DNA of 58,555 nucleotides from positions 1-58,555 of the forward strand of contig JAFTPF010000117.1 of assembly GCA_017463445.1 (NCBI GenBank), written 5' to 3'. The DNA is from Clostridia bacterium. GTDB lineage: Bacteria > Bacillota > Clostridia > Oscillospirales > CAG-272. Under the pieces are notes generated by a model. It was not told where the DNA came from. It ran no database searches and saw nothing but the letters and a program-made list of their open reading frames with translations. The position numbers and the translations under genes were made by a program. Positions 2,786 through 49,824 of this stretch are shown one piece after another (the stretch's first letter is position 1; the number at the start of each line of letters is the position of its first letter).

Positions 2786-4021
2786 TTATTTATTCTTTTC
2801 CTTAATACTTTTCCAGTACGCGGCGGCGGCTTGCTCGGTCTTGTTTTCGCCGGGGGTGTAGTAGCGGACGTGCTTCAGATCGTCGGGGAGATATTGCTGC
2901 TCCACATAGTGGCTCGGGTAGTCGTGGGGGTATTTGTAGCCGTCGAATTGCGTGGTCTGACGCAGATGGGCGGGGATGTTCTGCCCCTTGCCCGCGGCGA
3001 TGTCGGCGGCGGCTTTCTCGTAAGCGATGTGAGCAGCGTTGGATTTGGGCGCGGTCGCCAGCATCACGACGGCGTGAGAAAGGGGAAGGGAAGCCTCGGG
3101 CAGTCCCACACGGAAGGCGGCGGACACACAGGCCTCGGTGATAGCGGCGGCTTGGGGATAGGCAAGTCCGATGTCCTCGGAGGCGATGACCGACAGCCGT
3201 CTGCAGGCTCCGATCAGATCGCCGCCGGTCAGCAGACGGGCGAGGTAGAAGATCGCCGCGTCGGGATCACTGCCGCGGATGGATTTTTGCAGAGCCGACA
3301 GCAGATCGTAGTGCACCGTGCCGTCCTTGTCGAAATTTCCGCCCGTCACCTGCCCCAGCTCCTTTAAGGAGTCAGGAGTCAGATCGCCGTCGGCGGCGAA
3401 GTAAGCGTTTTCCAGCAGATTCAGCGCACGGCGCACGTCTCCCGATGCCGCCGAAGCGATGGCAAGTAGCGCGTCTTCCGAGGCTTTTTTGTCGCCGACC
3501 TGCGTCTTGTTCAGATACGCCAGCCCGCGCTCCAGAGCGGGGAGTAGCTCCTTCGCCGAAACAGCCTTGAACTCGTAGACCGCCGAGCGGGAGAGGATGG
3601 CGTTGTAAACGTACAGATAGGGGTTTTCGGTGGTGGAGGCGATTAGCGTGATCCGTCCGTCCTCCAGATAGGAGAGAAGGGATTGCTGTTGCTTTTTGTT
3701 GAAATACTGGATCTCGTCCAGATAAAGCAGAATGCCGCCCGATCCGAAGAGGGTGGCAGTCTCACTACAGACCGCCTTTACGTCGGCGAGGGAATCGGTG
3801 GTGGCGTTGAGGCGGCGGATAGTCTTTCCGGAGCCTTCGGCGAGGATGCCGGCGGCGGTGGTTTTTCCCGTGCCGGGAGGACCGAAGAAGACCATGTTGG
3901 GCAGGTATCCCTGCTCCACCATACGGCGGACGGCACCATTTTTGCCGAAGAGGTGGGTCTGTCCCACCATATCCTCAAAGGAGGTGGGACGCAGTGCGTC
4001 GGCAAGGGGAGTATAGCTCAT
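2786..4021 (-). CDS. rarA: Replication-associated recombination protein A (AAA+ ATPase)
   Basis: 411 aa; N-terminus LADALRPTSFEDMVGQTHL, Walker A GPPGTGKTT, conserved RarA/MgsA C-terminal domain. Confidence 0.9.
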   Translation of the reverse strand: MSYTPLADALRPTSFEDMVGQTHLFGKNGAVRRMVEQGYLPNMVFFGPPGTGKTTAAGILAEGSGKTIRRLNATTDSLADVKAVCSETATLFGSGGILLYLDEIQYFNKKQQQSLLSYLEDGRITLIASTTENPYLYVYNAILSRSAVYEFKAVSAKELLPALERGLAYLNKTQVGDKKASEDALLAIASAASGDVRRALNLLENAYFAADGDLTPDSLKELGQVTGGNFDKDGTVHYDLLSALQKSIRGSDPDAAIFYLARLLTGGDLIGACRRLSVIASEDIGLAYPQAAAITEACVSAAFRVGLPEASLPLSHAVVMLATAPKSNAAHIAYEKAAADIAAGKGQNIPAHLRQTTQFDGYKYPHDYPSHYVEQQYLPDDLKHVRYYTPGENKTEQAAAAYWKSIKEKNK

Positions 4022-4186: not shown

Positions 4187-4747
4187 TTAGCCTTTAACGT
4201 AATCCCATTCATCGGAATCATAGATTCTGGGGTATTCGGCTTTATAGGCTTCCCAAACCGTGCGAAGCTCTTCCTCGGTGAGAACACCTGCGGAATACGC
4301 GCCTTGCAGAGAGTAGGAACGACCGTTTTCGAATACTGTCAGTTTAGTGGTATCGGTGTAGCGGAACTCGTAGCCTTCGACTGTATCCTTAGATAGCATC
4401 GGAGCGACAGTAATAGTACCGTCCTTTCTGCATCCCAGATAGAAGCAGATGTAGGCGTTATCAGATTGAACGTAAAACGATCCGACCATCAAATTGTTGA
4501 TCGTAAGTTCTTCGCCCACCGTATCTTTTACAGCAGCCCAAACGCTGTTCAAAAGGGCAACGCGGTCTGCGCTTGCATCCGGATTGGTGAGCGTATCCCG
4601 GCTAACGGTAGTTACGGTGCCAATGGTAACAGGGGGAGTGGTTGCATTCGTGCCGAGCGTATTGCCTGTGTCGGCGGTGTCGGCACATCCCGCCAACAAC
4701 ATCGCGGCGAGGGCAAGCAGGGTGAGGGTTCGTGCGAGGTGTTTCAT
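4187..4747 (-). CDS. Lipoprotein of unknown function, paralogue A
   Basis: 186 aa; signal peptide with lipobox LLAGC; tandem paralogue of 4836..5363. Confidence 0.6.
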   Translation of the reverse strand: MKHLARTLTLLALAAMLLAGCADTADTGNTLGTNATTPPVTIGTVTTVSRDTLTNPDASADRVALLNSVWAAVKDTVGEELTINNLMVGSFYVQSDNAYICFYLGCRKDGTITVAPMLSKDTVEGYEFRYTDTTKLTVFENGRSYSLQGAYSAGVLTEEELRTVWEAYKAEYPRIYDSDEWDYVKG

Positions 4748-4835
4748 AGTGGTTGTCCTTTCTGTGGTTCCCCTTTCCCGGGTGGAAAAGGGGAGGATTC
4801 ACCAGTGCGAGTTCACATTATCCTGCGACGTCATC

Positions 4836-5363
4836 CTATTCATCGGAATCATATAATCCGGGGTATTCGGCTTTATAGGCTTCCCAAACCGTGCGAAGCT
4901 CTTCCTCGGTGAGAACACCTGCGGAATACGCGCCTTGCAGAGAGTAGGAACGACCGTTTTCGAATACTGTCAGTTTAGTGGTATCGGAATAGTAGAACTC
5001 ATAGCCTTCTACCGTGTCTTGGGTCTCCATTGGGCTGGAAAGGATCAGATTATCCTTTCTGCATCCCCTATAAAAGCAAACGTAGGCGTTGCCACATTGA
5101 ACGTAAAACGATCCGACCGACAAATTGTTAATCGTAAGTTCTTCGTCCACCGTATCTTTTACAGTAGCCCAAACGCTGTTCAGAAGGGCAACGCGTTCCT
5201 CACTCAAATTGGGTTTGGTCAGCGTATCCCGGTCAACGGTAGTAACAGCAGTCGTGGTTGCATTCGTACCGAGCGTGTTGCCCGTATCGGCGGTATCGGC
5301 ACACGAGACCGCGAGCGCTCCGATCACCAATACTAACAGTATGCTGATCATTCGTTTTTTCAT
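4836..5363 (-). CDS. Lipoprotein of unknown function, paralogue B (ends at TAG aligned with Trp of paralogue A)
   Basis: 175 aa; signal peptide/lipobox AVSC; C-terminal half almost identical at nucleotide level to paralogue A. Confidence 0.6.
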   Translation of the reverse strand: MKKRMISILLVLVIGALAVSCADTADTGNTLGTNATTTAVTTVDRDTLTKPNLSEERVALLNSVWATVKDTVDEELTINNLSVGSFYVQCGNAYVCFYRGCRKDNLILSSPMETQDTVEGYEFYYSDTTKLTVFENGRSYSLQGAYSAGVLTEEELRTVWEAYKAEYPGLYDSDE

Positions 5364-5393
5364 AATTGTATCTCCTTATATCAATATTATAAC

Positions 5394-7169
5394 TTAGTCG
5401 ATTTGGCACCATGCAACACTATACCATGTTTCAGTACTGATATTTCTGAGATTGTCGATAAATATTGAATAAGTGCCTGTTGTAGATGGAGTAAATTCTA
5501 ATATTTTGATATTCCCCAAATAACTACTTGCTGTTTGTGCATGGTAAACGCCGCTTCGATAGACAGCCAAATTGACTCTGGGGGCTGTCGTAGAGGTTGT
5601 CACTTCGGTTGAATGGTTATAAATCGCGTCGCGCAAAGCAACTACGACAATTCGCACAGGCTTACCGGCTTCTAGATCAATCGTAAACGACTCGCGGGCA
5701 CCTGAAGTGTTCGCATTAAACCCGCCATCATTATTATATTGCGTGCTTAGCATAGCATTGTACACGTTCAAACAATCTAAAATACCGGCACCGTACCGTT
5801 CATATCCGTTAGTAGAATTAAGAGGCCATGTTACGTATCGATTGAACGAGGTGCTTACGTTAGCCGCTAATATTGCTTTTATAGTATCTGGATAATGGGT
5901 CAAATTGGGTTTTTGCTGTAGCAATAACGCTACCGCACCTGTTACCATTGGAGCTGCCAAACTGGTTCCATCAACAGCATAAGACATACCCTCTGGTTGA
6001 ATATTGACTCCAGGAGCACTTATATCCGGACGAGAACCTTCTGCAAAGGTTATATGCGTATAACTGGATTTAGAGTAAATTGCGCCATTCACATCAACTG
6101 CCCCTACAACGATAGCATTGTATGATAGATTGCCAACAAATACTTCGCCAGGAGCAGAAACGCCGTTATTTCCTACACTAAATACTATGCTGACAAGATG
6201 ATTCAGTGCAATATGATCAAACCATGCCGTGTTTGAATCGTAGATGTTTGTAACAGCGTTCCCGTTCTCATCTTCATAACTGATGCTCATACTAATATTT
6301 ATTACATTCACTCCCTGATCAATCAGCCATTCGATTGCTGGAATGTAGCCTGAAGTTGCATGCGCTGCATACAATTGTGCATCTGGTGCAACTGATTTGG
6401 CTGTATAAGCAACGAATGAAGCATGGCCTGCATATAAATAATTCACGGATGCATCTGCTGTAGCAATGTTATAACAATGATTTGCTGTTAGTCCAAGCGC
6501 ATCTCTCTCAGTATAAAACGGCAACTCGGTTTCCAAAATACCTATCTTAATTCCTTGCCCGGTATATCCATTTTCATGCACATCATCAGCATTGATCATA
6601 CCTAAATAATCAATGCCCGCCGTCGTGGACGCAGTCTCCGCCAATGGTGCCGCCAGCGGCTCCTCCTCCGCCAGCTCCATATCATACAACTCAATGCTCT
6701 CCACAGCTCCGTTCAGCGCCAGCTGATTGGTTTCCACACTGTCGAGGCTGGCGATGATGACGGGAGAATACTTGCTGATATACTCCACCTTGCCGTCCAG
6801 ATACTTTTCGGCAAAGGCGGTGTTCTGCGCCAAATATGCTTCGCGTGAGGCGGCGCGGCGTGCCATAATGTCGGCTTGCACCGCTTCGATCTCAGCTTGG
6901 TTTTCATACTCCTCTGCGGCAGAGGAAAGAGTCAGGGCGGCGGGCTGGGTCTCGGGCAGACCCCGTTCCACCGCGCCGTGGTCAATGTCTTTGATGAACA
7001 CCATCACTGATTGCTCTGTGCCGCTCTCCTCAGTATAAGCGGCGGTGAGACTGTCTCCGATGACACGGTCACGGATCACGGCTACCTGCATCTCGGCGGC
7101 AGACAGGGCGGGCAACCCCAACAGGGCTGCGAGGATGAACACGGAAAGTGTACGCGCGAGCTTTTTCAT
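5394..7169 (-). CDS. Secreted subtilisin-like S8 serine peptidase
   Basis: 591 aa; signal peptide; GTSLAAPMVTGAVALLL (Ser motif), AGHASFVA (His motif), SVGNNG (oxyanion Asn); GIKIGILETE lies where the Asp motif is expected. Confidence 0.8.
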   Translation of the reverse strand: MKKLARTLSVFILAALLGLPALSAAEMQVAVIRDRVIGDSLTAAYTEESGTEQSVMVFIKDIDHGAVERGLPETQPAALTLSSAAEEYENQAEIEAVQADIMARRAASREAYLAQNTAFAEKYLDGKVEYISKYSPVIIASLDSVETNQLALNGAVESIELYDMELAEEEPLAAPLAETASTTAGIDYLGMINADDVHENGYTGQGIKIGILETELPFYTERDALGLTANHCYNIATADASVNYLYAGHASFVAYTAKSVAPDAQLYAAHATSGYIPAIEWLIDQGVNVINISMSISYEDENGNAVTNIYDSNTAWFDHIALNHLVSIVFSVGNNGVSAPGEVFVGNLSYNAIVVGAVDVNGAIYSKSSYTHITFAEGSRPDISAPGVNIQPEGMSYAVDGTSLAAPMVTGAVALLLQQKPNLTHYPDTIKAILAANVSTSFNRYVTWPLNSTNGYERYGAGILDCLNVYNAMLSTQYNNDGGFNANTSGARESFTIDLEAGKPVRIVVVALRDAIYNHSTEVTTSTTAPRVNLAVYRSGVYHAQTASSYLGNIKILEFTPSTTGTYSIFIDNLRNISTETWYSVAWCQID

Positions 7170-7368
7170 AGATTTACCTCCTTGCGGTATTATTTTTCTT
7201 GCTCTTTTGACGTTTGTTCACTTCTTTCTTCTAATCGGCAAGAGCATTGCCCATTGGACTCACCTCCCCCAAGTTATATTTACTATATATAACAAATCAG
7301 GAGGTGTAAATATTACAGCATTTTAGCAGGATTCACAAAATGTTTACAAAATTTGCAGTTCTCCGCGC

Positions 7369-7422
7369 AAAAAACGCAGAGATGCCGACGGATTGGGGAT
7401 TGCCTACCGTCTGCGCCTCTGC
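7369..7422 (-). terminator. Intrinsic terminator (strongest on minus strand)
   Basis: GCAGAGGCGCAGACGG-N15-CCGTCGGCATCTCTGC (2 mismatches) followed by GTTTTTTGCG on the minus strand. Confidence 0.6.
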
Positions 7423-7476
7423 GCTGTTTCTTTGCTCTGATCGGTGACTGTTCCCAACGCGGTCAGATTCTTTCTG
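7369..7476 (-). ncRNA. Candidate small RNA (~105 nt), family unknown
   Basis: Bounded by minus-strand TTGACA-17-TGcTATACT promoter and a 16-bp hairpin + GTTTTTT terminator; no ATG and no RBS-preceded ORF inside. Confidence 0.45.
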
Positions 7477-7481
7477 TTACC

Positions 7482-7510
7482 AGTATAGCAGGTTTTCATT
7501 ATATTGTCAA
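7482..7510 (-). promoter_or_regulatory. Consensus sigma-A promoter with no downstream ORF
   Basis: Minus strand: TTGACA (7510-7505), 17-nt spacer, TGc-TATACT (7487-7482). Confidence 0.6.
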
Positions 7511-7585
7511 GACTTTTTTGGAATATTTTTACTAATAATTTCAGAAAAGCATAGATCGCAAAGCAAAAAAGAACAAAAGTTCGAA

Positions 7586-7633
7586 AGTTGCAACAAATTG
7601 CAACTGTTTCATACGGTTTTGCTGTGTTATACT
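7586..7633 (+). promoter_or_regulatory. Perfect palindrome (operator-like) plus extended -10 promoter of the head module
   Basis: AGTTGCAA-CAAA-TTGCAACT at 7586-7605; TGtTATACT at 7625-7633; the palindrome abuts the -35 position. Confidence 0.45.
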
Positions 7634-7691
7634 TTGCTCACAGCCAAGGGAAATCCCCAAAACTGATGAAAAACGAAAGGAGAGGATCCAA

Positions 7692-8072
7692 ATGGAATCC
7701 ATTCACACCGAAAACGCCGTTTTCGAAACCGAGGCGGTATTCCGCCGAAAGCTCAAAAGCTACATCAAGCATTGCAACAAGCAGGGCGAGGACGAAAAGA
7801 CCCGCCGTCTGCCCAACGCCGCAGGCTTCTGCCGCTTCTGCGAGATCTCCCGCGAGGGCTTTGCAAGGCTGAAGGTCACCTACCCGCTGATGTACGACAT
7901 CGCACAGTCCACCTTCCTGGACGAAGCGCTGAACACCAAGATGTCCAACTCGGCGGCGAACATGTCCTTCCTGGCAGAGTTCAACCGCTCGGTGGGCGAG
8001 GAGCAGGAGGAGGAGCCGGGCGGCGACACCGTCCGCCTCATCACCTGCCACGATGATGGCGACGCGCTCTAA
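7692..8072 (+). CDS. Putative terminase small subunit
   Basis: 126 aa; HTH-like PNAAGFCRFCEISREGF typical of small terminases; overlaps TerL start by 20 nt; strong RBS AAAGGAGAGG. Confidence 0.55.
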   Translation: MESIHTENAVFETEAVFRRKLKSYIKHCNKQGEDEKTRRLPNAAGFCRFCEISREGFARLKVTYPLMYDIAQSTFLDEALNTKMSNSAANMSFLAEFNRSVGEEQEEEPGGDTVRLITCHDDGDAL

Positions 8073-9390
8073 GAAAAAGTCCCGTGAGGTGGTGGTGCGG
8101 CTTGAGGGAAAGCCCTCCGAAAAGCAGGCGCAGTTTTTCGCCTCCCGTGCCCGTTACACCGCTTACGGCGGCGCACGCGGGGGAGGGAAGTCCTGGGCGC
8201 TGCGGCGCAAGCTGATCCTGCTCTGCTTTCGCTATCCCGGTATCACCTGCATCTTAGTGCGCTGCTCCCTGCCCGAGCTGAGAGAGAACCACCTATTTCC
8301 GCTCCTCTCTCAGCTGGGGGACGCGGTGGTCTACAAGGAGTCCACGCACACCTTCACCTTCCCCGGCGGCAGCCGCATCGTGCTGGGGTACTGCGACAAC
8401 GAGCGAGACGTGCTCCGCTATCAGGGACAGGAGTACGACATCATCGCGCTGGACGAAGCCACCCAATTGACCGAGTTTCAGTTTTCCACCTTCAAAGCCT
8501 GTCTGAGAGGCGCAAACAGCTTTCCAAAACGGATCTACCTCACCTGCAATCCCGGCGGGGTGGGTCATGCCTGGGTGAAGCGTTTATTCGTCGATCGGCT
8601 CTTCCGCCAGGGAGAGGATCCTGCCGACTACGCCTTCATCCCTGCGGGGGTGTATGACAATCAAGTGCTTCTGGAAAAGGATCCCGGTTATGTGGCTGGC
8701 TTGCAGTCTCTGCCCGATACCCTGAGGCGAGCGTGGCTGGACGGTAGCTGGGACGTGTTCGAGGGGCAGTTCTTTCCCGAATTTTCCCGTACGCGGCACG
8801 TCTGTGAGCCATTCGAGATCCCGAAGAACTGGAGACGGTTCGGCGGACTGGATTATGGCTTCGATATGCTGGCGGCACTGTGGGCGGCAGAAGATCCCTC
8901 CGACGGGACTGTCTACGTCTATCGGGAGTTTGGCAGGTCGGGGCTGACCCTTACCGCCGCCGCCAAAGCGGTTGCCGAGGCGGGATGCGGTGCGGAGGAA
9001 GCAGACTATTTTGCCGCCTCGCCCGATTTGTGGAACCGCCGTCAGGACACGGGGCTGGCGGGGGTGACGGTGATGAGTGGCGTGGCAGGCTTCCCCACGC
9101 TGATCAAAGCCGATGACCGTCGGGTGATGGGCTGGCGCAATCTGCGGGAGTATCTTTGCGGGGAGGAAGGACGGAGACCGCGACTCCTGATCTTCTCTAC
9201 CTGCACCGAGCTGATCCGCACCCTGCCCGCCCTGCTCCACGATAAGCACCGTCCCGAGGACGCCTCCTCTGAGCCTCACGCAGTCACTCACTTTCCCGAA
9301 GCACTGCGCTACGCTCTGATGGCGGTACCTGTAGGCGACGGCCGCGTGGACCGCACCCGCGATCCTCACGGCGGGATCTTGCGGTGCTGA
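8053..9390 (+). CDS. Terminase large subunit (PBSX/Terminase_3-like)
   Basis: 445 aa; Walker A YGGARGGGKSW, Walker B YDIIALDEA, C-terminal nuclease motifs (GLDYG, EALRY) intact. Confidence 0.9.
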   Translation: MMATRSKKKSREVVVRLEGKPSEKQAQFFASRARYTAYGGARGGGKSWALRRKLILLCFRYPGITCILVRCSLPELRENHLFPLLSQLGDAVVYKESTHTFTFPGGSRIVLGYCDNERDVLRYQGQEYDIIALDEATQLTEFQFSTFKACLRGANSFPKRIYLTCNPGGVGHAWVKRLFVDRLFRQGEDPADYAFIPAGVYDNQVLLEKDPGYVAGLQSLPDTLRRAWLDGSWDVFEGQFFPEFSRTRHVCEPFEIPKNWRRFGGLDYGFDMLAALWAAEDPSDGTVYVYREFGRSGLTLTAAAKAVAEAGCGAEEADYFAASPDLWNRRQDTGLAGVTVMSGVAGFPTLIKADDRRVMGWRNLREYLCGEEGRRPRLLIFSTCTELIRTLPALLHDKHRPEDASSEPHAVTHFPEALRYALMAVPVGDGRVDRTRDPHGGILRC

Positions 9391-9439
9391 TCCTCTCCGA
9401 TTTCCCTTGGCTGATGAAATCGATGAGAGGAGGGTCACC

Positions 9440-9589
9440 GTGACCGAGATTGTTCTGACTCTTGCCGTTGGCGGGGCGGCAGGGCTGGCGGTGGGAATTG
9501 CCGTCGGGTTGTGGATCGGCAGGATACGCCGCAGGCGGCAACGCCTATCATCCACCGCCGACAGCTTTCTGAAGCTGCTGAGACATTAG
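9440..9589 (+). CDS. Small single-pass membrane protein
   Basis: GTG at 9440 preceded by AGGAGG; hydrophobic segment IVLTLAVGGAAGLAVGIAVGLWI then RIRRRRQR; the track start at 9407 (TTG) is less likely. Confidence 0.35.
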   Translation: MTEIVLTLAVGGAAGLAVGIAVGLWIGRIRRRRQRLSSTADSFLKLLRH

Positions 9590-9639
9590 ACGGGGACGGC
9601 GCGCCCTCCCCGAAACAACTGAAATGAAAGGAATTTGGT

Positions 9640-11193
9640 ATGAAACATCAAAAATTGACCACTGCCTGGAAGCAGTACGAGGAGGGGCGGGCGTACAAGC
9701 GTACCGTCGGTCTCTACCGCCGTGTGGATGAGAACGAACGGTTCTACCGCGGCGACCAATGGAAGGGCGTGGACGCAGGCGGTCTGCCCACCCCCGTCTT
9801 CAATCTCATCAAGCGCATCGGATCCTATCTGATCAGCGCGGTGCTTAGCTACAAGCTGACCGTCCGCTACGACGATATGGGCATCCCCTACGCCGACCCC
9901 AGCGACGCAATCCGCAAAAGGGAAGCGACGCTGGAGGCACTCAACCGCGTTACCGCCTGCCGCTGGAAGCAGAGCGGGATGGATACCGTCCTGCGCCGTG
10001 CACTCTACGACGCGATCCTCTCGGGAGACGGCATCTTCTACTGTTGTTTTGATCCCACCCTCCCCGGTGCGGGAGACTTTGCCGGAGACATCCGAACCAC
10101 TACGCTGGACAGCGTGAATTTGTTTGCAGCGGATATGAACTCCGACGATATCCAACACCAGGAATGGCTGATCCTGTCCGGCCGCGCTTCGGTAGATATG
10201 CTTCGCCGCGAGGCAGCCGCCGCCGGTCTGCCCGCCGATCAGGCGGACAGGATCCGCCCCGACCGGGATTACGACGACGGTGCGGGAGATTTTGCTTCCT
10301 ACGAGACAGGCGACAAGGCGACCTATCTGATCCGCTTTTATCGCGACGACGAAGGCTTCGTCTGCTGGGAAAAGTGTACCCGCGAGACGGTCATTCGCGC
10401 GGTTCGCACCGGGATGCGCCGTTATCCCATTGCCATGTTCCATTGGGACACGGTGAAGAACAGCTTCCATGGCTCATCTCCCATCACCGAGCTGATCCAA
10501 AATCAGAAGTACGTCAACAAGGCGTACGCGATGGTGATGAAGCACATGGTAGATACGGCGTTCTCCAAGGTTATCTACGACAAGCGACTGATCCCCGAGT
10601 GGACCAACGAGGTGGGCGAGGCGATTGGCGTGCTCTCGGGCGGCGACGTGTCAAACGTTGCCACCACGCTGGGGGTAGGCGAGATGCAGGATGGCTACCG
10701 CGAGCTGATCGATTCGGTGATAGAGAACACGAAAGAGCTGACCGGTGCCACCGAGATCGTGCTGGGTGAAGCGGATCCCAACAATACCTCCGCCATCATC
10801 GCCCTGCGCGAGATGGCAGAGGTGCCGCTGGATCAGGTACGGGCGAGCATTGCCGCCTGTATGGAAGAGCTGGCACTGATCTGGCTGGAGATGATGCGGG
10901 AGTATTTCCCCGACATCCGCAGTTATGCGGATGGGGAGGGTGTGGTCTGCCTGGATCTGGCGTGCCTGCCTGCCGATTCGGTAAACGCCTACGTGGACAG
11001 CGGTGCCAGCAGACGGTTCTCCCAGTCGATGCTGCTTTCCACTCTGCAGAGCCTGCTGGATGCGGGACATATCACCTTTGCCGAGTATCTGGAGCGTCTG
11101 CCTGAGGGCGTCCTCACCGATAAGGACAAGCTGCTTGCTCGCGCCAGAGGGGATCTTGCCGACGCAGACGTAGGGGGGGACGCCAATGGATGA
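9640..11193 (+). CDS. Phage portal protein
   Basis: 517 aa; position after TerL; N-terminal ERFYRGDQW motif typical of SPP1-type portals. Confidence 0.8.
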   Translation: MKHQKLTTAWKQYEEGRAYKRTVGLYRRVDENERFYRGDQWKGVDAGGLPTPVFNLIKRIGSYLISAVLSYKLTVRYDDMGIPYADPSDAIRKREATLEALNRVTACRWKQSGMDTVLRRALYDAILSGDGIFYCCFDPTLPGAGDFAGDIRTTTLDSVNLFAADMNSDDIQHQEWLILSGRASVDMLRREAAAAGLPADQADRIRPDRDYDDGAGDFASYETGDKATYLIRFYRDDEGFVCWEKCTRETVIRAVRTGMRRYPIAMFHWDTVKNSFHGSSPITELIQNQKYVNKAYAMVMKHMVDTAFSKVIYDKRLIPEWTNEVGEAIGVLSGGDVSNVATTLGVGEMQDGYRELIDSVIENTKELTGATEIVLGEADPNNTSAIIALREMAEVPLDQVRASIAACMEELALIWLEMMREYFPDIRSYADGEGVVCLDLACLPADSVNAYVDSGASRRFSQSMLLSTLQSLLDAGHITFAEYLERLPEGVLTDKDKLLARARGDLADADVGGDANG

Positions 11194-11548
11194 GCATCGC
11201 CCCGTTCTCACTGTACCGGAGCAGCAAGATGAGCGGATGGCTTTTAACGAAGCGTATCCCGATGTTTCCTGGGACTCGGTTCCGGACGCGGTGAAGGAAA
11301 ACGCCCGTCTGAAAGAGATCCCCGTGGCTGCTGCCTACTGCCTTCACCTCCAGCGGAGGGAACAGGCGAAAAAGACCGCCGCATCTGCGTATCAGCGAGC
11401 TGTGGCAGAATCTCCGGGCGTCCCTGTGGGTGCCTTGGGAGAAAGACTGTATTCTATCGACGAGATGCGAGAAATGACCTCCAAAGAGGTCAAGAGTCGC
11501 TATCACACCCTGCTTGCCAGTCTCAAACGGGGCTTTTCCAAATGGTGA
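11186..11548 (+). CDS. Scaffold-like/minor head protein
   Basis: 120 aa; overlaps portal stop; position between portal and capsid genes; helical charged C-terminus. Confidence 0.4.
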   Translation: MDEHRPVLTVPEQQDERMAFNEAYPDVSWDSVPDAVKENARLKEIPVAAAYCLHLQRREQAKKTAASAYQRAVAESPGVPVGALGERLYSIDEMREMTSKEVKSRYHTLLASLKRGFSKW

Positions 11549-11589
11549 GCAGGCAAACGAATTCATATTAAAAAAGGAGAATTTATATT

Positions 11590-12414
11590 ATGGCAACTAA
11601 AAACTTTATTCCTACCGTTTGGAGCGAAACTTTGCTCCAGTCCCTTGATAAGGAGTACGTAGCGGTCATGAACTGCAACCGCTCCTTTGAGGGCGAGATC
11701 CGCAATCTGGGCGACAGCGTTGTGATCAATTCCATCGGTCCCATCAGTGTGTTCGACTACACCGCCGATACCGATATGAACGCCCCTGAAGCACTGGCAG
11801 AGGGCACCTCCGTCAACCTGAACATCGACCGCGCCAAGGCCTTCTGCTTCCAGATCGACGACGTGGACCGCGTACAGGCAAAGCCCGATCTGATGAAGAC
11901 CGCCATGAAAGAAGCGGCGTGCGCTCTTGCGGAAGAGGCGGACAAGTACATTTACTCCCTCTACTCCAAGTGCCCCAGAGAAAATTCGATCACTCTGTCC
12001 GGCATCAGCGCCGACAACATCGTGGATCTTGTGATCGAGGCAAGAGAGATCCTGATGAAGAACAATGTCAACAGTAACACGGAAGTGGTTCTGGAGGTAT
12101 CTCCCACCATTGCGGCGCAGATCCTCAAAGCCAAGATCCTGACCGGCACCGACAACACCTCCGCTCTGAACAACGGCTACCTGGGCAGCTTCGTAGGCTT
12201 TGACGTTTACGTATCCAATAACATTTCGGAAGACGGCGGAATCTATCATTGCATGGCTCGTACCAAGCGTGCGGTCGCCTTTGCGGAGCAGCTGAAGAGC
12301 GTCGAGGCGTTCCGTCCCGAAAAGCGTTTTGCCGACGCGGTGAAGGGTCTCCATCTGTACGGTGCGGAGCTGATCTACCCCAACGAGATGGTGGTTCTGA
12401 ACCTGTCCTTATAA
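11590..12414 (+). CDS. Major capsid protein candidate
   Basis: 274 aa; strongest RBS of the module (AAAGGAGA); N-terminus NFIPTVWSETLL...GDSVVIN resembles small Firmicute-phage capsid proteins; follows scaffold-like gene. Confidence 0.65.
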   Translation: MATKNFIPTVWSETLLQSLDKEYVAVMNCNRSFEGEIRNLGDSVVINSIGPISVFDYTADTDMNAPEALAEGTSVNLNIDRAKAFCFQIDDVDRVQAKPDLMKTAMKEAACALAEEADKYIYSLYSKCPRENSITLSGISADNIVDLVIEAREILMKNNVNSNTEVVLEVSPTIAAQILKAKILTGTDNTSALNNGYLGSFVGFDVYVSNNISEDGGIYHCMARTKRAVAFAEQLKSVEAFRPEKRFADAVKGLHLYGAELIYPNEMVVLNLSL

Positions 12415-12433
12415 CAGAAAGTAGGCGAGCACA

Positions 12434-12937
12434 GTGAAAAACGCTGAGGTTTTGCGGATGGCGGAAGCCTTACTGACTCCTGCCGTCCAGGTGAGCAGCT
12501 CGTCCTCGTCATCCTCGTCTACTACTCCCGATGACGGAGCTACCGAGGAAGGGGACAACACCATCGATCAGCTCTCGCTGGTAACGGTTACTACTCCCAT
12601 CGACGGTGCGTCGGGTACGGCGGCGTCTACTACCATCGTGACGGTGGCGGTGGACGATCCCCGAATCAAGGAGCGGCTCCGCATCCTGCTGGAGACCACC
12701 GTACGCCTGCTTTACCCCAAGGGGTTGCTGGCAGGAGTATCCCTGCCCGTGCCTGCGTACCCGTTGGTGGGAGAGGGCGAGTTTCCTCTTCCCGATGGTC
12801 TGGCGGCTGCCGCGGCGTATCACACGGCGTGGCTGCTGACCGGCGAGACTAGGCTGGCGACTGCCTTTGATGAGGCGATGGAGATCTATTACGCTTCGCT
12901 GGAAGCGTGCGTAGCACCGATCGTCCGAAAGCATTGA
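12434..12937 (+). CDS. Head-tail connector/adaptor-like protein with Ser/Thr-rich N-terminal region
   Basis: 167 aa (GTG 12434; alternative ATG 12458); position after capsid gene; SSSSSSSSSTT tract. Confidence 0.4.
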   Translation: MKNAEVLRMAEALLTPAVQVSSSSSSSSSTTPDDGATEEGDNTIDQLSLVTVTTPIDGASGTAASTTIVTVAVDDPRIKERLRILLETTVRLLYPKGLLAGVSLPVPAYPLVGEGEFPLPDGLAAAAAYHTAWLLTGETRLATAFDEAMEIYYASLEACVAPIVRKH

Positions 12938-12978
12938 CAACAAAAGAAGACCCGCGTCTGGCGGGTCTTCTTTTGTTG
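12938..12978. terminator. Bidirectional terminator exactly filling the gap between convergent stops
   Basis: 18-bp perfect inverted repeat CAACAAAAGAAGACCCGC-GTCTG-GCGGGTCTTCTTTTGTTG between stops at 12935-12937 and 12979-12981. Confidence 0.75.
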
Positions 12979-14175
12979 TCAGTCCCATTTGATCTGCCAA
13001 CGGGGGCTGATCTTACCGTCGGGCGAGGACGCTGACGCGGCGGCGCCGGTTTTGGAAGCGGCGATCCGCTTGGCAAGAAGCGCGTCAAAGCGTGCTGTGT
13101 CCGCATCGGACAGGGGAAGCGAGACTTTCCGTCCCTCCCAGGAGGAGAGATAGGCGGCGTTGGCAAGGGTCAGCATGGCGATGCCTTCTCTGCCGTCGGC
13201 AACAAGCGGTGTGCCTGTGAGGATCGCCTCGGCAAAATCGGCAAGGACGCCAGCGTGCGCCCGCTCGGGGGCAGAGGCGGTGATTTCGGTGACGGTGGGC
13301 TTGATGCTGCAAGAGGCGGTGACGGCAGTTCGGATATGCTGGTCTGCCGAGAATCCGTTATCAAAGTGACGGAGCATGCCGCCCTCCAACACGATCTTGC
13401 CCCGATCGCCCACGATCTCCAGACGGTTGGTGCCGGGATATTCGCCGGTGGTGGTGATAAACTGGGCTGTGGCGCCGTTTTCGTATTCCATGGTGAGGAT
13501 CGCCTCATCCTCCACCTCGACATTGTGGTATTTACCCGAGGTACAGGTGGCGGTGAGAGCGCAGGGCATTCCGAAGATCCATTGCAGCAGATCCAGGTTG
13601 TGGGGGGCTTGATTAAGAAGCACGCCGCCACCCTCACCGGAATAACTGCCTCGCCAGTCGCCGCTTTTGTAGTAGGCGTCGGTGCGGTACCAGTTGGTGA
13701 TGATCCAGGTCAGACGGTGCATCTTGCCCAACGTGCCGTTCTGCACCATCGTGCGGGCTTTTTGGAACAGCTCGCCGGTGCGCTGATTGAACATGATGCC
13801 GAACACTTTTCCTGAGCGGTCGGCGGCTTCGTTCATCTGCTGAACGTCCGACACTCGCACGCCTGCGGGCTTTTCGGTGATGACGTGGAGTCCCGCTTCA
13901 AAGGCGGCCATCGCCATCGGCGGGTGGAAGTAGTGGGGCGTGGCGATGAGAACGGCGTCGGCAAGCTTGGCGGCGAGCATCTCGTCATAGTCGGTAAAGC
14001 GGGGAACGAGAGGAGCTTTTGCCTCCGCCAAAGCAAGCCGGTCGGGGTTGATATCGCAGACCGCGACAAGCTCCACGTTTGGCACTTTGCCCGTCAGGAT
14101 ATTCATCATGTGGGCGGAGCCCATGTTGCCGAGCCCTACAATGGCAAGGCGGAGTTTTCGGGAAGTCATGGTCAT
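12979..14175 (-). CDS. Gfo/Idh/MocA family oxidoreductase
   Basis: 398 aa; N-terminal Rossmann LRLAIVGLGNMG; family-typical length; overlaps uxaC stop. Confidence 0.9.
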   Translation of the reverse strand: MTMTSRKLRLAIVGLGNMGSAHMMNILTGKVPNVELVAVCDINPDRLALAEAKAPLVPRFTDYDEMLAAKLADAVLIATPHYFHPPMAMAAFEAGLHVITEKPAGVRVSDVQQMNEAADRSGKVFGIMFNQRTGELFQKARTMVQNGTLGKMHRLTWIITNWYRTDAYYKSGDWRGSYSGEGGGVLLNQAPHNLDLLQWIFGMPCALTATCTSGKYHNVEVEDEAILTMEYENGATAQFITTTGEYPGTNRLEIVGDRGKIVLEGGMLRHFDNGFSADQHIRTAVTASCSIKPTVTEITASAPERAHAGVLADFAEAILTGTPLVADGREGIAMLTLANAAYLSSWEGRKVSLPLSDADTARFDALLAKRIAASKTGAAASASSPDGKISPRWQIKWD

Positions 14176-15545
14176 ACCTCAGGAAAGAGACGGTTTTTGA
14201 TATTCTTGTAGCAGATCTTTTCTGCGAGGGGAAGGGCAGCTTCTTGGGCGAACTCGCCCGCGTCCACCATCTCACCGATGAAGGTGCAGAGGATGCGGCG
14301 GAAGTAGTCGTGGCGGGTGTAGGAGAGGAAGCTGCGGGAGTCGGTGAGCATCCCGTAGAAGGAGGCGATCTGCCCCATCTCGGAGATAGACTGCATCACC
14401 CGGCGGATACCGCCGGTGTGGTCCATGAACCACCAGGCGGCGCCTACCTGTACGCCCCGGAAGGAGCCGGCAACCGAGACCATGGCGTCCAGCATGGAGG
14501 GGTTCAGCGTGTACAGAACGGTGGCGGGGAGACCGTCATTTTCCTCCATTGCGGCAAGAAGCTTCGACTGTGCGGCGGCGGGGATGGGATCGTCGATGCA
14601 GTCTCCGCCTGCGTCCACGCCGACAGTGGCAAAGAGGGAAGGGTTCACGTTCCGCTGGACGGCAAGATGGAGCTGGGAGAGCAGTCCACGCTTTTTGTAC
14701 ATCTTGGAGAGATCGATCAGGGCACGGCTGAGGAAGGCGTCGAACTCGGCGTTGGAAATAGTTTCACCGGAGAAAATCTTCGCAAATGCCGTCTCTGCCT
14801 CGGCTGTAGTACCGACGGAGAGCGGGAAGGCAGGGATGCCCAGGTCGGTAACACGGCAGCCGTTTTCCACGAAAAAGTCGAGGCGGGACTCGGCGGCGCG
14901 AAGCAGGGAAGCGTAGTCGGTGATGGAAACTCCTGCGGCGGCCGAGAGACGGGTGAGATATTCCTTGTAATCTGCGGCACGGCAGAGCAGCATCTTGTCG
15001 GGGCGGTAGGAGGGGATCACCGTGCAGGTGAAGCTCTCGTCCGCGGCGATCTTCTCGTGCCACTCCAGACTGTCGGCAGGATCGTCGGTGGTAGCCACCA
15101 GCGCAACATTGCTCATTTCGATGAGCTTGCGGGGAGAGAGGGCGCGCTCTTTAATCGCAAGAGCCGCGCGGTCGTAGATCTCGTCGGAATTTTCGGGAGT
15201 CAGCTGCTCTTCGATACCGAAGTAGGCGGCAAGCTCCAGCTTGGTCCACAGATAGAGGGGATTGCCTGCGGCGTACCTGATCGCCTGGGCGTAGGCGCGG
15301 AGCTTTTCCCGCGGGGAGGCGTCGCCGGTGATGTACTTCTCCTCGATGCCGCTCTGGCGCATCAGCCGCCACTTGTAGTGGTCACCCGCAAGCCAGAGGG
15401 TGGTCAGGTCGGAGGCGGGCTTGTCCTCGTAGATCTCTTTCGGTGAGAGATGGCAGTGATAATCGTAGATAGGCAGGTCTTTGACTGCGTTATAGAGCGT
15501 CTTGGCGCATTCGCCGCGAAGTAACAGGTTTTTCATGGCAGGCAT
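14172..15545 (-). CDS. uxaC: Glucuronate isomerase
   Basis: 457 aa; DLPIYDYHCHLSPKEI and overall UxaC pattern. Confidence 0.9.
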   Translation of the reverse strand: MPAMKNLLLRGECAKTLYNAVKDLPIYDYHCHLSPKEIYEDKPASDLTTLWLAGDHYKWRLMRQSGIEEKYITGDASPREKLRAYAQAIRYAAGNPLYLWTKLELAAYFGIEEQLTPENSDEIYDRAALAIKERALSPRKLIEMSNVALVATTDDPADSLEWHEKIAADESFTCTVIPSYRPDKMLLCRAADYKEYLTRLSAAAGVSITDYASLLRAAESRLDFFVENGCRVTDLGIPAFPLSVGTTAEAETAFAKIFSGETISNAEFDAFLSRALIDLSKMYKKRGLLSQLHLAVQRNVNPSLFATVGVDAGGDCIDDPIPAAAQSKLLAAMEENDGLPATVLYTLNPSMLDAMVSVAGSFRGVQVGAAWWFMDHTGGIRRVMQSISEMGQIASFYGMLTDSRSFLSYTRHDYFRRILCTFIGEMVDAGEFAQEAALPLAEKICYKNIKNRLFPEV

Positions 15546-43060: not shown

Positions 43061-43621
43061 TTACTTTACGAGCAGCGGCTGCAGTTGGCGTCCTTCCAGA
43101 GCGGCGGCGATCGTTTCGGGGATCCGATCGAAATCGCAGACCATGCTGTGAGGCTTGGATTGGGGATCGTCCTGTCCCAGGGGGACGAAATAGATGTTTT
43201 TTCGCTCCAGCAGCGTGCCGATGTTGCGGAGATTTGCCGACAGGGCGTCGTTGCTGGCAAGGGCGATGATCAGCGGTCTGCCGTTGCGCAGATGCGCCTT
43301 TGCCGCCATGGTCACCGAGGTGTCGGTGATGCCGTTTGCCATCTTGGCCAGCGTGTTGCCGGTGCAGGGCGCGATCACCAGAGCCTCCAGCGGGATCGTG
43401 GGACCCAGCGGCTCAGCTTCGGCGATGGTGGTCAGGGGCTTCCTTCCGCTGATGGTCTCCATCAGAGAGAGAAAATCGGCGGCCTTACCGAAGCGGGTGT
43501 CGGTGACTGCTACCACGGGACTGACGATGGGCAGCAGTTCATAGGACTTCGACAGGACTTCCATCTGCCGCATAGTGCGGGAGAGGGTGCAGAAGGAGCC
43601 GCAGCAGGCGTATCCGATCAT
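43061..43621 (-). CDS. dpaB: Dipicolinate synthase subunit B
   Basis: MIGYACCGSFCT flavoprotein-like N-terminus; ATGA overlap with dpaA stop; the track start 43660 is upstream. Confidence 0.85.
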   Translation of the reverse strand: MIGYACCGSFCTLSRTMRQMEVLSKSYELLPIVSPVVAVTDTRFGKAADFLSLMETISGRKPLTTIAEAEPLGPTIPLEALVIAPCTGNTLAKMANGITDTSVTMAAKAHLRNGRPLIIALASNDALSANLRNIGTLLERKNIYFVPLGQDDPQSKPHSMVCDFDRIPETIAAALEGRQLQPLLVK

Positions 43622-44469
43622 ACGATCCCCTCCTTTTCGCGCAGGTGTGACAGGATGCACTCGCCAAACAGCCGTCCTGCAAATCGGGGCGCGTATTTGG
43701 CGGGGAGCGCCGCCGCGCGGATCACGCGGGGAGCGTCCGCGGGGGCGTAGACGGGGGCAAGATCGATGACCGTGCCGCCCGTTGGCAGCAGCTTGGCAAA
43801 GTCAAAGAGGGGCGCAGGGATCGTGTTGAAGATCAGCGGTGTGTCGGCAAGCATCGAGGGAGCGTCGGTCAGCGAATATGCCGCACATCCTTCCGCTGTC
43901 GCCTCCGCTCGTGCGCCGGCTTTGCGGGCGATGACCGTGACGCGCGCCCCCATCGCCGTCAGCAGGCGGGAGAGATGCTTTGCGATCCGTCCGTAGCCAA
44001 GGATGGTGCAGTCGCTATCGGAAAGCAGATCGGAGGTCTCGGTGATCGCCAGCGCGACTGCACCCTCTGCCGTGGCAAGGGCGTTGGGGAGTGCGAATCG
44101 CTCGTCGGTGAGGCAGTCGTAGAGCGCGCATCCCCTGGCGCGGATCGCGTCGCTCCACCCAGCGGGAAAGCCGCCGCCTGCTACCGTTTGCCCCTTTCGG
44201 AGCGCGGAGACGATTCCGTCCAAGGGAATCGGCTGTGTTGCCATAGGCGCGTTTAAGGTGATCCCGTCTCGGCTGACGGGGATCGGGAGAACGATCATCT
44301 CGGCGGCAAAGACGAGTTGATCAATGGGCAGAGAAGGCGGCGCACCACCGTCCTGACCGAATAAAGTGACGGTGCAGCCCGCCTGCTCCAATATTTTTGC
44401 GGTATGCACCATCCGTCCGTCCCCACCCGGAATAAACGCCGTGAGGGGGATCTTTTGAGTTTCCATCAT
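43618..44469 (-). CDS. dpaA: Dipicolinate synthase subunit A
   Basis: 283 aa; dehydrogenase-like fold with ILGYGRIAKHL NAD motif; dpaA-dpaB synteny. Confidence 0.85.
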   Translation of the reverse strand: MMETQKIPLTAFIPGGDGRMVHTAKILEQAGCTVTLFGQDGGAPPSLPIDQLVFAAEMIVLPIPVSRDGITLNAPMATQPIPLDGIVSALRKGQTVAGGGFPAGWSDAIRARGCALYDCLTDERFALPNALATAEGAVALAITETSDLLSDSDCTILGYGRIAKHLSRLLTAMGARVTVIARKAGARAEATAEGCAAYSLTDAPSMLADTPLIFNTIPAPLFDFAKLLPTGGTVIDLAPVYAPADAPRVIRAAALPAKYAPRFAGRLFGECILSHLREKEGIV

Positions 44470-48414: not shown

Positions 48415-49824
48415 CTATTTCGTCTTGCTTCTCAGCTTGGTGCGGAAGAATTGGCGCAGGAAGGCGTCCTTGTTGAAGGGGATCACCGGATAGAGATAGC
48501 TGCGACTGCCGTCCACCGTTTTGTTGAGCCCGATCAACAGGAGGATTGCCGCCAGTCCGATGCCGAATCCCCAGGCGTTGAAGAGCGCCGTGGCGAGAAG
48601 GAGAAGGATCCGCATGAACTTGAAGGCGTAGCCCAGCTCGAAGGAGGGCTGGGCAAAGTTGGCCATAGAGACGAACGCCATATAGAGGATGACCTCGGGA
48701 TCCAGCCAGCCTACCTGAATGGCGAAGTCGCCTAGGATCAGACCCGCTACCACCGAGAGGGAGTTGCCCAGCATATTGGGCGTGTTCAGCGATGCCAGCT
48801 TCAGTCCGTCGATGGTGAATTCCACCAGCAAAAGCTGGAGGAGGATGGGAAAGACCGGAGGCTCGGACAGCTTGATAAAGGCGAGCCAGTCGGGGATCCA
48901 GCCGGGATTTTTGATCAGCAGATACCAAAGCGGCGTCAGAAAAAGGGATAGCAGGAAGATCACACCCCGCAGAAAGCGCAGATAGGTGCCCAGTAGGGGC
49001 GGGAAGTAGAAGTCGTCGGTCTCTTGCACAAAGTCGAAGATGCCCACGGGCAGCACCATCAGCTGGGGCGAGGCGTCGCACATGATCAGCACCGAGCCCT
49101 CCAGCAGCATTGCCGCCGCCGCATCGGGACGCTCGGTATAGCGGAATTTGGGGAAGGGATTGTACCATTTGCGGCGGATCAGACACTCCGCCAGCGACTC
49201 CTGACCCAGCGAGAGAGCGTCTACGCGAATCGCGCTGAGCTTGTCGCGGATGGCGTTCACATATCGCTCCTCCGCCCGCCCCTCCACGTAGCAGAGGATC
49301 AGATTGGTGGGCGTGCTGTCGCCGACCTTGAAAAGCTCCAGATGGAGATCGGGAGTAGAGAGTCGCCGCCGCAGGATGGCGGTGTTCTCCAAAAGATGCT
49401 CGGTAAAGCCTTCTCTGGCACCCCGAAGCACCTGATCGTGCTGTGGTTCGGTGATCCCGCGGGAGGGGATGGATTTGGTGTCGGTGACCATCAGGCGGTC
49501 GAATCCGTCCACCAGCAGGACCGAGCTGCCCCCTCTCACCTCCGAGGCGGCGGAGGTGAGGTCATCGGTCAGAGTCAGATTGCCCACCACCAGACAGCGG
49601 GCGGTATAGGTCTCGGCGGTGTCCTCCTTTTTCACGGGACAGCCCAGATAGGAGGCGAGCATCCGCTCCAGACTCTCGGACGAGGTCATGGAGGCGGGGT
49701 AGAGGAGGGTCGCGTCTCGTTCTCCCAAAATCAGCTTCCGCTCTCTGAGGTCAAAGCATTTGCCGTATCCGCAAGCCTCTTTCAAGCTCTCGCGGTCTGT
49801 TTCGTAGTCGCCGGACAGTTTCAT
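48415..49824 (-). CDS. Spore germination protein, GerA/SpoVAF family
   Basis: 469 aa; soluble N-domain plus C-terminal 5-TM domain typical of GerA-subunit/SpoVAF proteins. Confidence 0.8.
   Translation of the reverse strand: MKLSGDYETDRESLKEACGYGKCFDLRERKLILGERDATLLYPASMTSSESLERMLASYLGCPVKKEDTAETYTARCLVVGNLTLTDDLTSAASEVRGGSSVLLVDGFDRLMVTDTKSIPSRGITEPQHDQVLRGAREGFTEHLLENTAILRRRLSTPDLHLELFKVGDSTPTNLILCYVEGRAEERYVNAIRDKLSAIRVDALSLGQESLAECLIRRKWYNPFPKFRYTERPDAAAAMLLEGSVLIMCDASPQLMVLPVGIFDFVQETDDFYFPPLLGTYLRFLRGVIFLLSLFLTPLWYLLIKNPGWIPDWLAFIKLSEPPVFPILLQLLLVEFTIDGLKLASLNTPNMLGNSLSVVAGLILGDFAIQVGWLDPEVILYMAFVSMANFAQPSFELGYAFKFMRILLLLATALFNAWGFGIGLAAILLLIGLNKTVDGSRSYLYPVIPFNKDAFLRQFFRTKLRSKTK

Follow-up and report, generated by a model that had tools for sequence, protein, structure and literature searches.

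The 58,555-nt stretch from contig JAFTPF010000117.1 of a Clostridia bacterium (Oscillospirales; CAG-272; assembly GCA_017463445.1), here called the window and written W in locus comparisons, raises the question of why a set of phage head and DNA-packaging genes should stand by itself among host genes. The module consists of seven closely spaced open reading frames (ORFs) on the + strand, all of them open, which span 7692-12937 and encode, in order, a putative small terminase (TerS), a large terminase (TerL), a 49-aa membrane peptide, a portal, a scaffold-like protein, a capsid protein and a 167-aa post-capsid protein. The first-pass annotation of this DNA had described seven tightly packed open genes and had judged them a retained capsid/packaging unit rather than the outcome of random prophage decay. 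Both statements stand: the arrangement is as described, and retention is strongly supported, since the genes are intact, keep their position, evolve under purifying selection and diverge in step with a host gene. As to what is being retained, we consider it somewhat probable that the module is a domesticated, vertically inherited and SOS-controlled head/packaging operon of the gene transfer agent (GTA) kind, with hub and lysis functions either supplied in trans or absent.

Library searches firmly identify three of the seven products. TerL (445 aa, 8053-9390) matches Terminase_3 (9e-09), Terminase_6N and phrog_979 (3e-46) and carries the Walker A (GGARGGGKS) and Walker B (DIIALDE) motifs that had already been read from the sequence. 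The 517-aa portal (9640-11193) is of P22 type (P22_portal, 5e-10; phrog_156, 1e-26), and the 274-aa major capsid protein (11590-12414) has the HK97 fold (Phage_capsid_2; phrog_267, 6e-47). The capsid profile also matches the capsid protein gp6 in PDB entry 8e16 (1.5e-41), and the closest phage capsid proteins, at 41-43% identity, are those of phages D6E and AP45 and the Clostridium phage phiCP39-O group, which unlike the module are complete 38-52 kb phages with tails and with lysis, integrase and replication genes. Searches of TerL, the portal and the TerS and post-capsid profiles against the sequences of solved structures gave nothing significant. IMG/VR has capsid matches of 46% identity or more on contigs of 4-10 kb only, and phage-sized contigs appear only at capsid identities of about 44% or less, so that no close free-living phage relative is in view. 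Public records name these proteins "hypothetical", "phage capsid protein" or "P22 coat protein domain protein". The product of the first gene (126 aa, 7692-8072) is weakly supported as a P22 gp3-like TerS: its Pfam match to GP3_package is weak (E 0.028), and the top PDB match of its AlphaFold2 (AF2) model (pLDDT 75) is the P22 small terminase 3p9a (Foldseek prob 0.91, TM 0.49, E 0.37). It belongs to a family that precedes terL in all relatives (profile match E 4e-37) and has the conserved core LPNxAGFCRF...FEDEALN. The portal and the predicted TerS are both of the type known from P22-like podoviruses.

Nothing else that a phage would need was found around these genes. We scanned 43 predicted genes of the window, the seven of the module included and a few genes past ~49.9 kb left out, with Pfam and/or PHROGs, and outside the module this gave no match to tail, lysis, integrase, repressor or replication genes, in agreement with the first-pass annotation, which had also named the flanking genes correctly. 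These are an S8 peptidase gene (5394-7169) upstream and, downstream, a GFO/IDH/MocA oxidoreductase gene (12979-14175) that converges on the module, followed by uxaC (14172-15545); the MgsA/RarA gene (mgsA, 2786-4021) lies beyond the peptidase gene. No att-like direct repeats were found around the module. The resemblance to the host that had been noted by eye also holds when measured. GC content is 0.59 in the module and 0.57 in the host, GC at third codon positions (GC3) is 0.72 and 0.71, and relative synonymous codon usage (RSCU) correlates between module and host genes with r 0.96, as against 0.98 among host genes. By these measures, the module is indistinguishable from host genes.

The comparison across related genomes that the first-pass annotation had proposed, covering synteny, intactness and selection, answers the question of decay. 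The same tail-less operon lies between mgsA and sugar-acid metabolism genes in metagenome-assembled genomes (MAGs) whose capsid proteins are 93, 81, 64 and 61% identical to that of the window. Besides the window there are 16 head-only loci, from distinct MAGs, and 13 of them adjoin mgsA; GCA_017451585.1, GCA_965341905.1 and GCA_963618185.1 are examples of head-only carriers. In a pairwise codon analysis against four to six relatives, the ratio of nonsynonymous to synonymous divergence (dN/dS) was 0.08-0.12 for terL, 0.10-0.15 for the portal gene, 0.09-0.18 for the capsid gene, 0.10-0.24 for the genes of the 120-aa scaffold-like and 167-aa post-capsid proteins, 0.06-0.28 for terS and 0.26-0.36 for the 49-aa membrane peptide. 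All seven genes therefore fall within 0.06-0.36, at dS comparable to that of the flanking host genes, for which the ratio is 0.04-0.14. Module distances track MgsA distances closely (Mantel r 0.94, a value that none of 5000 permutations reached) in the 14 genomes with both mgsA and module, across which MgsA diverges by 3-41%; gene by gene, the Pearson correlation with MgsA protein distances is 0.77-0.94. None of the close relatives looked up carries a complete prophage with module genes at this site. The synteny, purifying selection, co-divergence, host codon usage and lack of att repeats together rule out a prophage that is recent or in decay, as well as a mobile island. The hallmarks of a remnant, namely pseudogenes, neutral evolution, patchy presence and foreign composition, were not found; what was found are two of the marks of a GTA or other viriform, a chromosomal structural/packaging cluster without replication, integration or excision genes, and vertical inheritance under purifying selection.

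The head-only operon in turn represents, in reduced form, a large family that descends from a small phage. A scan for the capsid protein across one genome per GTDB species found relatives in at least 414 species representatives, and the best 80 of these 414 are all MAGs of uncultured Clostridia, Oscillospiraceae, "Ruminococcus sp." or Ca. Flemingiibacterium from rumen, caecum and gut. Cluster look-ups turned up no name of a cultured organism. The family is undescribed, in that literature searches turned up no description of it. By mapping the window's proteins onto the loci and clustering all ORFs, we sorted 69 distinct loci into four gene orders, with three loci undecided between types A and D. 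The clusters measure 5-10 kb, lie in the chromosome and are without genes for replication or integration. Six core genes are present wherever a locus has enough sequence: terS, terL, portal, a gene in the scaffold position, capsid and a ~125-aa post-capsid gene. Type A, the form of the window, has core genes only (16 loci and the window; 13 of 16 adjoin mgsA). Type B (24 loci, two of them adjoining mgsA) has in addition a gene for a ~580-aa protein between terL and portal. Type C (12 loci, none beside mgsA) has the order terS-terL-capsid-post-capsid-580aa-membrane peptide-portal-scaffold. Type D (14 loci, none beside mgsA) extends past the 580-aa gene, in the reference locus L050 (4451-14535) with genes for an XhlA-like protein, a holin-like protein, an Amidase_3-LysM endolysin, a glycine-rich fibre-like protein and one protein of no assigned function. 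A lysis cassette is present in 13 of the 14 type D loci and in none of types A, B and C. The genes scanned on either side of L050 are of host type and include no replication or integration gene, and from its gene content type D appears to be a self-contained unit of ~10 kb without such genes.

The ~580-aa protein matches phrog_3287, "virion structural protein" (4e-16), and weakly matches chains that are present in six copies each in solved structures (9nwi_Y, E 2.6e-4; 9vyg_M, "stabilization protein", E 0.37). We tentatively assign it as a podovirus-type tail hub or nozzle, tentatively because these structure matches are weak. Members of this hub-like family are only 21-26% identical to one another, too divergent to yield a search pattern. 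Since the type B locus L076 also adjoins mgsA, the position beside mgsA is probably older than the loss of the hub-like gene from the locus. Type D loci further have a divergent XRE-type/S24-peptidase repressor, CI- or LexA-like, beside the operon (e.g., L050 3441-4082, - strand), with extra LexA-type boxes near the start of the repressor gene at some loci and a further conserved box ~550 bp inside the portal gene (e.g., L050 6718). The family is also represented by an entry deposited as an "UNVERIFIED Bacteriophage sp." scaffold from human faeces in Mexico (L002; GenBank MT836592.1, 9588 bp), which carries the family terL, portal, scaffold, capsid and ~580-aa genes, with a TerL 54% and a capsid protein 37% identical to those of the window.

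The remaining three module proteins are small. The 49-aa product (9440-9589) is a single-pass membrane protein with a GTG start behind the ribosome-binding site GAGAGGAGGG; a hydrophobic helix is followed by RRRR and by a conserved C-terminal F(L/I)xxL(K/N)(H/Y). Its gene lies just upstream of the portal gene in the window clade, L054/L058, L084 and most type C loci (e.g., L010 12975-13118), all of them forms without a lysis cassette at the locus, and is absent in type D, where TerL ends in ...VSKY or ...ANY. The peptide might anchor or gate the portal, or it might have a role in lysis. The 120-aa protein (11186-11548) belongs to a family of the portal-capsid interval (hmmsearch E 4e-25) that occupies this place in 57 distinct relatives. 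Its sole library match, to phrog_14606, is weak and is to a family of no known function; a scaffold role is assigned because of its position and because there is no prohead protease. The 167-aa protein (12434-12937) is a candidate head-completion protein or adaptor. Throughout the family a gene for a ~125-aa protein comes after the capsid gene, and the 167-aa protein is a homologue of that product (hhalign prob 98%, E 9e-14), shares its FPLPD motif and differs from it by a Ser/Thr-rich insertion. The profile and structure searches that had been proposed for the 120-aa and 167-aa proteins therefore placed both in families, and the structural part gave no significant match for the latter. Its AF2 model (pLDDT 81) is helical with an inserted hairpin, and Foldseek against PDB and BFVD returned as the only phage hint the Sf6 portal-adaptor-capsid complex 7sp4, at E ~3. 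Among the structural genes, that of the post-capsid protein diverges fastest, with 43-89% identity where the capsid protein keeps 81-93%. The Ser/Thr-rich low-complexity insertions, which follow helix 1, have separate origins in two head-only subclades, one of poly-Ser with a hairpin (window 12480-12660) and one of SETV repeats (L042 1440-1940), and L025 (6374-6928) is a further locus of this kind; forms that carry the hub-like gene have no such insertion.

Control of the operon can be approached through the ~130 bp upstream of terS, which are nearly invariant in an alignment of the window with L003, L018 and L006 despite saturation of synonymous sites in the coding sequences of the window and L006 (dS 0.94-2.4). 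This region has a LexA (Cheo/SOS) box, AGAACAAAAGTTCG, at 7570-7583; GAACN4GTTC occurs nowhere else in the 58.5-kb window. In Bacillota, LexA operators have the consensus CGAACN4GTTCG. The box is conserved in the four-way alignment, and a LexA-type box, mostly the perfect CGAACAAATGTTCG, precedes terS in 30 of the 69 distinct loci, whereas its background frequency across the fetched DNA is 0.06 per kb; by type, it is present in 11 of 15 type A, 2 of 22 type B, 0 of 12 type C and all 14 type D loci. A consensus-type box in a promoter region, conserved among orthologous promoters, is what is expected of an operator in a LexA regulon, and because the conserved box matches the Bacillota consensus we infer that the operon is under LexA/SOS control. 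Downstream of the box, at 7587-7607, are the palindrome GTTGCAAC and TTGCAACTGT, with the conserved core TGCAACTGT (7599-7607); the whole stretch is invariant among the four aligned loci. The motif TGCWACTGT recurs ~19-20 nt upstream of the -10 hexamer in W, L003, L018, L013, L020, L021, L025 and L084, varies to GCTACTGT in L026 and to TGCTACTGC in L027, and is absent in L054/L058/L094. The TGCAACTGT element is probably a regulator site or an unusual -35 element. An extended -10, TGtTATACT (7625-7633, + strand), is invariant in the four-way alignment, and relatives have TGnTATAAT at the same place. On the + strand, a simple sigma-70 scan gave neither a full -35/-10 pair nor a good -35 for the extended -10. 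A sporulation-sigma reading of the conserved CATACGGT, suggested by consensus sequences, was considered and set aside. A composite pattern of LexA box, TGCWACTGY and extended -10, run over a metagenome collection, gave three chance matches only, in unrelated sequence.

The first-pass annotation had given the module its own promoter, marked by a perfect palindrome, and an 18-bp bidirectional terminator that exactly fills the 41-bp gap to the convergent gene. The upstream features that are conserved are the LexA box, the TGCAACTGT element and the extended -10, and the palindrome proves to be a clade-specific duplication of part of the TGCWACTGT element. The terminator is indeed a bidirectional hairpin shared with the oxidoreductase gene, and its dimensions are revised: a stem of 23 pairs with a 5-nt loop extends over 12933-12983 (-40 kcal/mol, z-score -10 against shuffles), overlaps the stop codons of both convergent genes and has the A and T runs of both sides inside the stem. 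An Rfam search of 7000-13200 gave only sub-threshold chance matches, on this hairpin.

If the module is a GTA-like head supply under SOS control, it might work as follows. In undamaged cells, LexA would sit on the 7570-7583 box, with the TGCAACTGT site and the extended -10 setting the promoter; DNA damage would derepress a single transcript of 7.69-12.94 kb that ends at the strong hairpin. Portal, scaffold and capsid protein would build a procapsid without a protease, TerS and TerL would cut DNA and pump it in by headful, and the 167-aa protein would cap or adapt the portal. The channel-closing hub, lysis and any fibre, which sister lineages appear to encode in cis, would here come from unlinked loci or co-resident phages or be dispensed with. 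The product would be a GTA-like particle, or a head precursor, with host DNA. Among the three possibilities that the first-pass annotation had left side by side, a head supply with the other parts elsewhere fits best, because sister lineages carry likely hub, lysis and fibre-like genes in cis; a capsid-forming satellite core fails on integrase, replication and mobility, and a protein container is disfavored by a terminase and portal under selection.

Several observations nevertheless weigh against a domesticated GTA-like operon. Homologues of the relatives' hub, lysis and fibre genes occur nowhere in the 58.5-kb window, and no hub, tail, lysis or fibre gene lies within 10 kb of the module of any head-only relative, so that a full set for a releasable particle (head with tail or hub, and lysis) was found in neither place. 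As encoded at the locus, the module is an incomplete particle, with DNA retention and release unaccounted for. The N-terminal helical region of TerS with LPNxAGFCRF, if it is a DNA-binding domain, might direct site-specific packaging rather than the random packaging of a GTA. The LexA box is degenerate in L006, is missing from most type B and type C relatives and, at 45-58 bp upstream of the -10 element, lies beyond the classic position of a repressor. Part of the co-divergence with adjacent mgsA could come from physical linkage. The adaptor role of the 167-aa protein is tentative and lacks significant structural support. Finally, all relatives are MAGs, and the family is known from its genes alone.

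A related but bolder reading, which we regard as unlikely, is that the family is an unrecognized Oscillospiraceae-type GTA lineage and, at the same time, that its head-only branch is a stable, self-sufficient tail-less state. The lineage would include the complete ~10-kb forms with their own hub-like protein, lysis cassette and fibre-like protein. The head-only forms would release SOS-triggered, DNA-filled, tail-less capsids through cell death or spore mother-cell lysis, and these capsids would deliver DNA by borrowed foreign tails or by a tail-independent route.

Tail borrowing can also be taken as the primary function, in which case DNA-filled tail-less capsids would become infective after joining the tails of other phages inside or outside the cell, much as is done by those phage-inducible chromosomal islands that form capsids (cf-PICIs), except that the element is immobile and owned by the host. 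The retention of head, packaging and adaptor-position genes beside the loss of every tail gene at the locus speaks for it, as does the post-capsid protein, which diverges fastest, has twice independently gained Ser/Thr-rich insertions and recalls the tail-adapting adaptors of cf-PICIs (bioRxiv 10.1101/2025.02.11.637232). Yet the module lacks integrase, replication and regulation modules and the cf-PICI connector, HNH and protease genes, its inheritance is vertical, it has no known helper phage, and sister forms have a ~580-aa hub-like protein of their own, which implies a self-sufficient ancestral state; we therefore hold this explanation to be quite unlikely. That the proteins are instead made upon SOS or infection signals to poison or hijack the assembly or packaging of related phages, with no DNA transfer, seems improbable. 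Such interference would account for purifying selection without a complete particle, for SOS-type control and for a place beside a variable low-GC island, but one or few proteins usually suffice for it, in contrast to seven co-adapted genes kept in order across many species. Moreover, the Pfam and PHROGs scans found no defence domain (PADLOC was not searched), and the complete sister forms, with their lysis cassette, look like particle producers.

The two remaining explanations fare worse. A mobile, cf-PICI-like satellite, or the still undecayed remnant of a recently truncated prophage, the latter a caveat of the first-pass annotation that synteny, dN/dS and co-divergence contradict, is very improbable. 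The gene content does resemble the packaging half of a cf-PICI or the left arm of a phage, but there is no integrase, excisionase, replication gene or att repeat; the same site is filled in genomes whose MgsA proteins are only 59-97% identical, with the module co-diverging; dN/dS stays far under 1 at dS values that reach above 1; the codon usage is wholly that of the host; and in no relative looked at does the module lie inside a full prophage. Least probable of all, to the point of being barely tenable, is a nanocompartment for protein or other non-DNA cargo, in which the HK97-fold shell is used as in encapsulins. Its particle would be tail-less, and the capsid protein has a weak match to Pfam Linocin_M18 (E 0.006, below the cut-off). 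Against this, the capsid protein falls among those of true phages, cargo-type genes are absent, and TerS, TerL (with intact ATPase motifs) and portal, which only DNA packaging requires, are under purifying selection. An encapsulin is an HK97-fold shell with cargo-loading peptides and without portal or terminase; here the portal and the terminases are present.

How the module relates to known systems bears on what a GTA-like operon of this kind could be. GTA-like packaging of 4.6-9 kb of host DNA has been reported in Ruminococcaceae, Oscillospiraceae and Christensenellaceae (Borodovich et al., Nat Commun 2026, PMC12946183). In that study, the FpGTA of Faecalibacterium prausnitzii comprises a 10.5-kb head/short-tail operon and a 5.5-kb fibre/lysis operon 125 kb away, its particles are 40 nm with no tails visible by electron microscopy, its TerS is without an obvious DNA-binding domain, and no homologous cluster was found in Gemmiger or Subdoligranulum (PMC12946183). 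The module resembles FpGTA in being chromosomal in gut Clostridia, without replication genes or integrase, and in the order TerS-TerL-portal-(small protein)-capsid, and the complete type D sister forms are of similar size at ~10 kb. It differs in that the window form has no short-tail genes and its TerS keeps the N-terminal helical region with LPNxAGFCRF. The FpGTA capsid is named as N4-gp56 family and a Prp-like protease lies between portal and capsid, whereas here the capsid is Phage_capsid_2/4 and a scaffold-like protein takes that place; the window capsid protein has no match to NCBIfam N4-gp56, and no module protein matches Prp. Orthology with FpGTA was considered and rejected on the different capsid family and the lack of a Prp-like protein, a separation made by names and family matches; as far as protein names allow, the two appear analogous, not orthologous. 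A full-text literature search for "FpGTA" found the Borodovich paper and no other. For the mouse gut, a 2026 preprint proposes GTA candidates in Coprocola and Butyricicoccaceae and has no strong candidate cluster for an Oscillospiraceae (Pelethomonas) producer (bioRxiv 10.64898/2026.07.08.737213).

Domestication of phage structural genes has precedents. GTAs of the RcGTA type, other viriforms and PBSX of Bacillus subtilis are domesticated, inherited vertically under purifying selection, regulated by the host and without replication or integration genes; PBSX is SOS-inducible, and RcGTA and PBSX each have a complete head and tail in one main cluster. The module shares with RcGTA and PBSX a domesticated cluster of phage structural genes, vertical descent, purifying selection and the lack of replication and integration genes. 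It differs from them in that they have complete heads and tails and belong to unrelated capsid and terminase lineages. For a head without a tail, cf-PICIs could serve by analogy as a precedent for how such a unit works. These release DNA-filled tail-less capsids that later take the tails of other phages (He et al., bioRxiv 10.1101/2025.02.11.637232), and they are mobile, HK97-like islands of 10-18 kb with integrase, replication and regulation (alpA) modules and with protease, connector and HNH genes (bioRxiv 10.1101/2025.02.11.637232). Like them, the module has its own capsid, portal, TerS, TerL and a tentative adaptor and no tail or lysis genes; unlike them, it lacks integrase, replication and regulation modules and att sites and is fixed in the chromosome.

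The locus is a candidate source of gene-transfer particles in gut Clostridia. In gut virus-like particles, much of the bacterial DNA comes from Oscillospiraceae and Ruminococcaceae in a GTA-like pattern, yet a gene cluster is confirmed only for Faecalibacterium, and few other candidates have been proposed (PMC12946183; bioRxiv 10.64898/2026.07.08.737213). The family described here is different and widespread, with at least 414 species and small phage-derived operons without replication genes that range from complete to head-only, and it offers candidate genes for transductomics signals. Were it a GTA lineage, it could explain GTA-like packaging in gut viromes for taxa with few or no gene clusters; were the head-only form to make functional particles, transfer by tail-less capsids would be found in host-owned elements as well as in mobile satellites. 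The LexA box is a testable regulatory handle, and the family as a whole forms a natural series for asking how much a domesticated virus can lose while selection still retains it.

The surroundings of the module have features of their own. Between mgsA and the module lies a low-GC island (4187-7169) made up of the S8 peptidase gene, with GC 0.47 and GC3 0.45 against host means of 0.57 and 0.71, and two ORFs of no assigned role (4187-4747, 4836-5363). In the relative L003 the same space is taken by a CHAP-domain protein and a 316-aa protein, and in L006 mgsA directly abuts the module; because the contents differ among these three, the space beside the module appears to be a variable insertion spot. 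A near-consensus sigma-70 promoter on the - strand (7482-7510; TTGACA, 17 nt, TATACT, with TG) points to the S8 peptidase gene, which would have a long leader since the promoter lies ~310 nt upstream of its start codon. On the - strand within the module, ORFs of 263-323 aa at 8584-9555, 9586-10470 and 11563-12354 overlap terL, portal and capsid genes; they ousted the true genes in a naive longest-ORF selection (cluster "c7") and look like by-products of high GC3, not genes. The other window genes scanned include phosphotransferase system components, glycosidases, a ribosomal protein, a two-component system, citrate synthase, dipicolinate synthase subunit A (DpaA, 43618-44469) and a GerA spore-germination protein (48415-49824). 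The presence of the DpaA and GerA genes indicates that the host forms spores, and mother-cell lysis would for that reason be a conceivable exit for particles without lysis genes.

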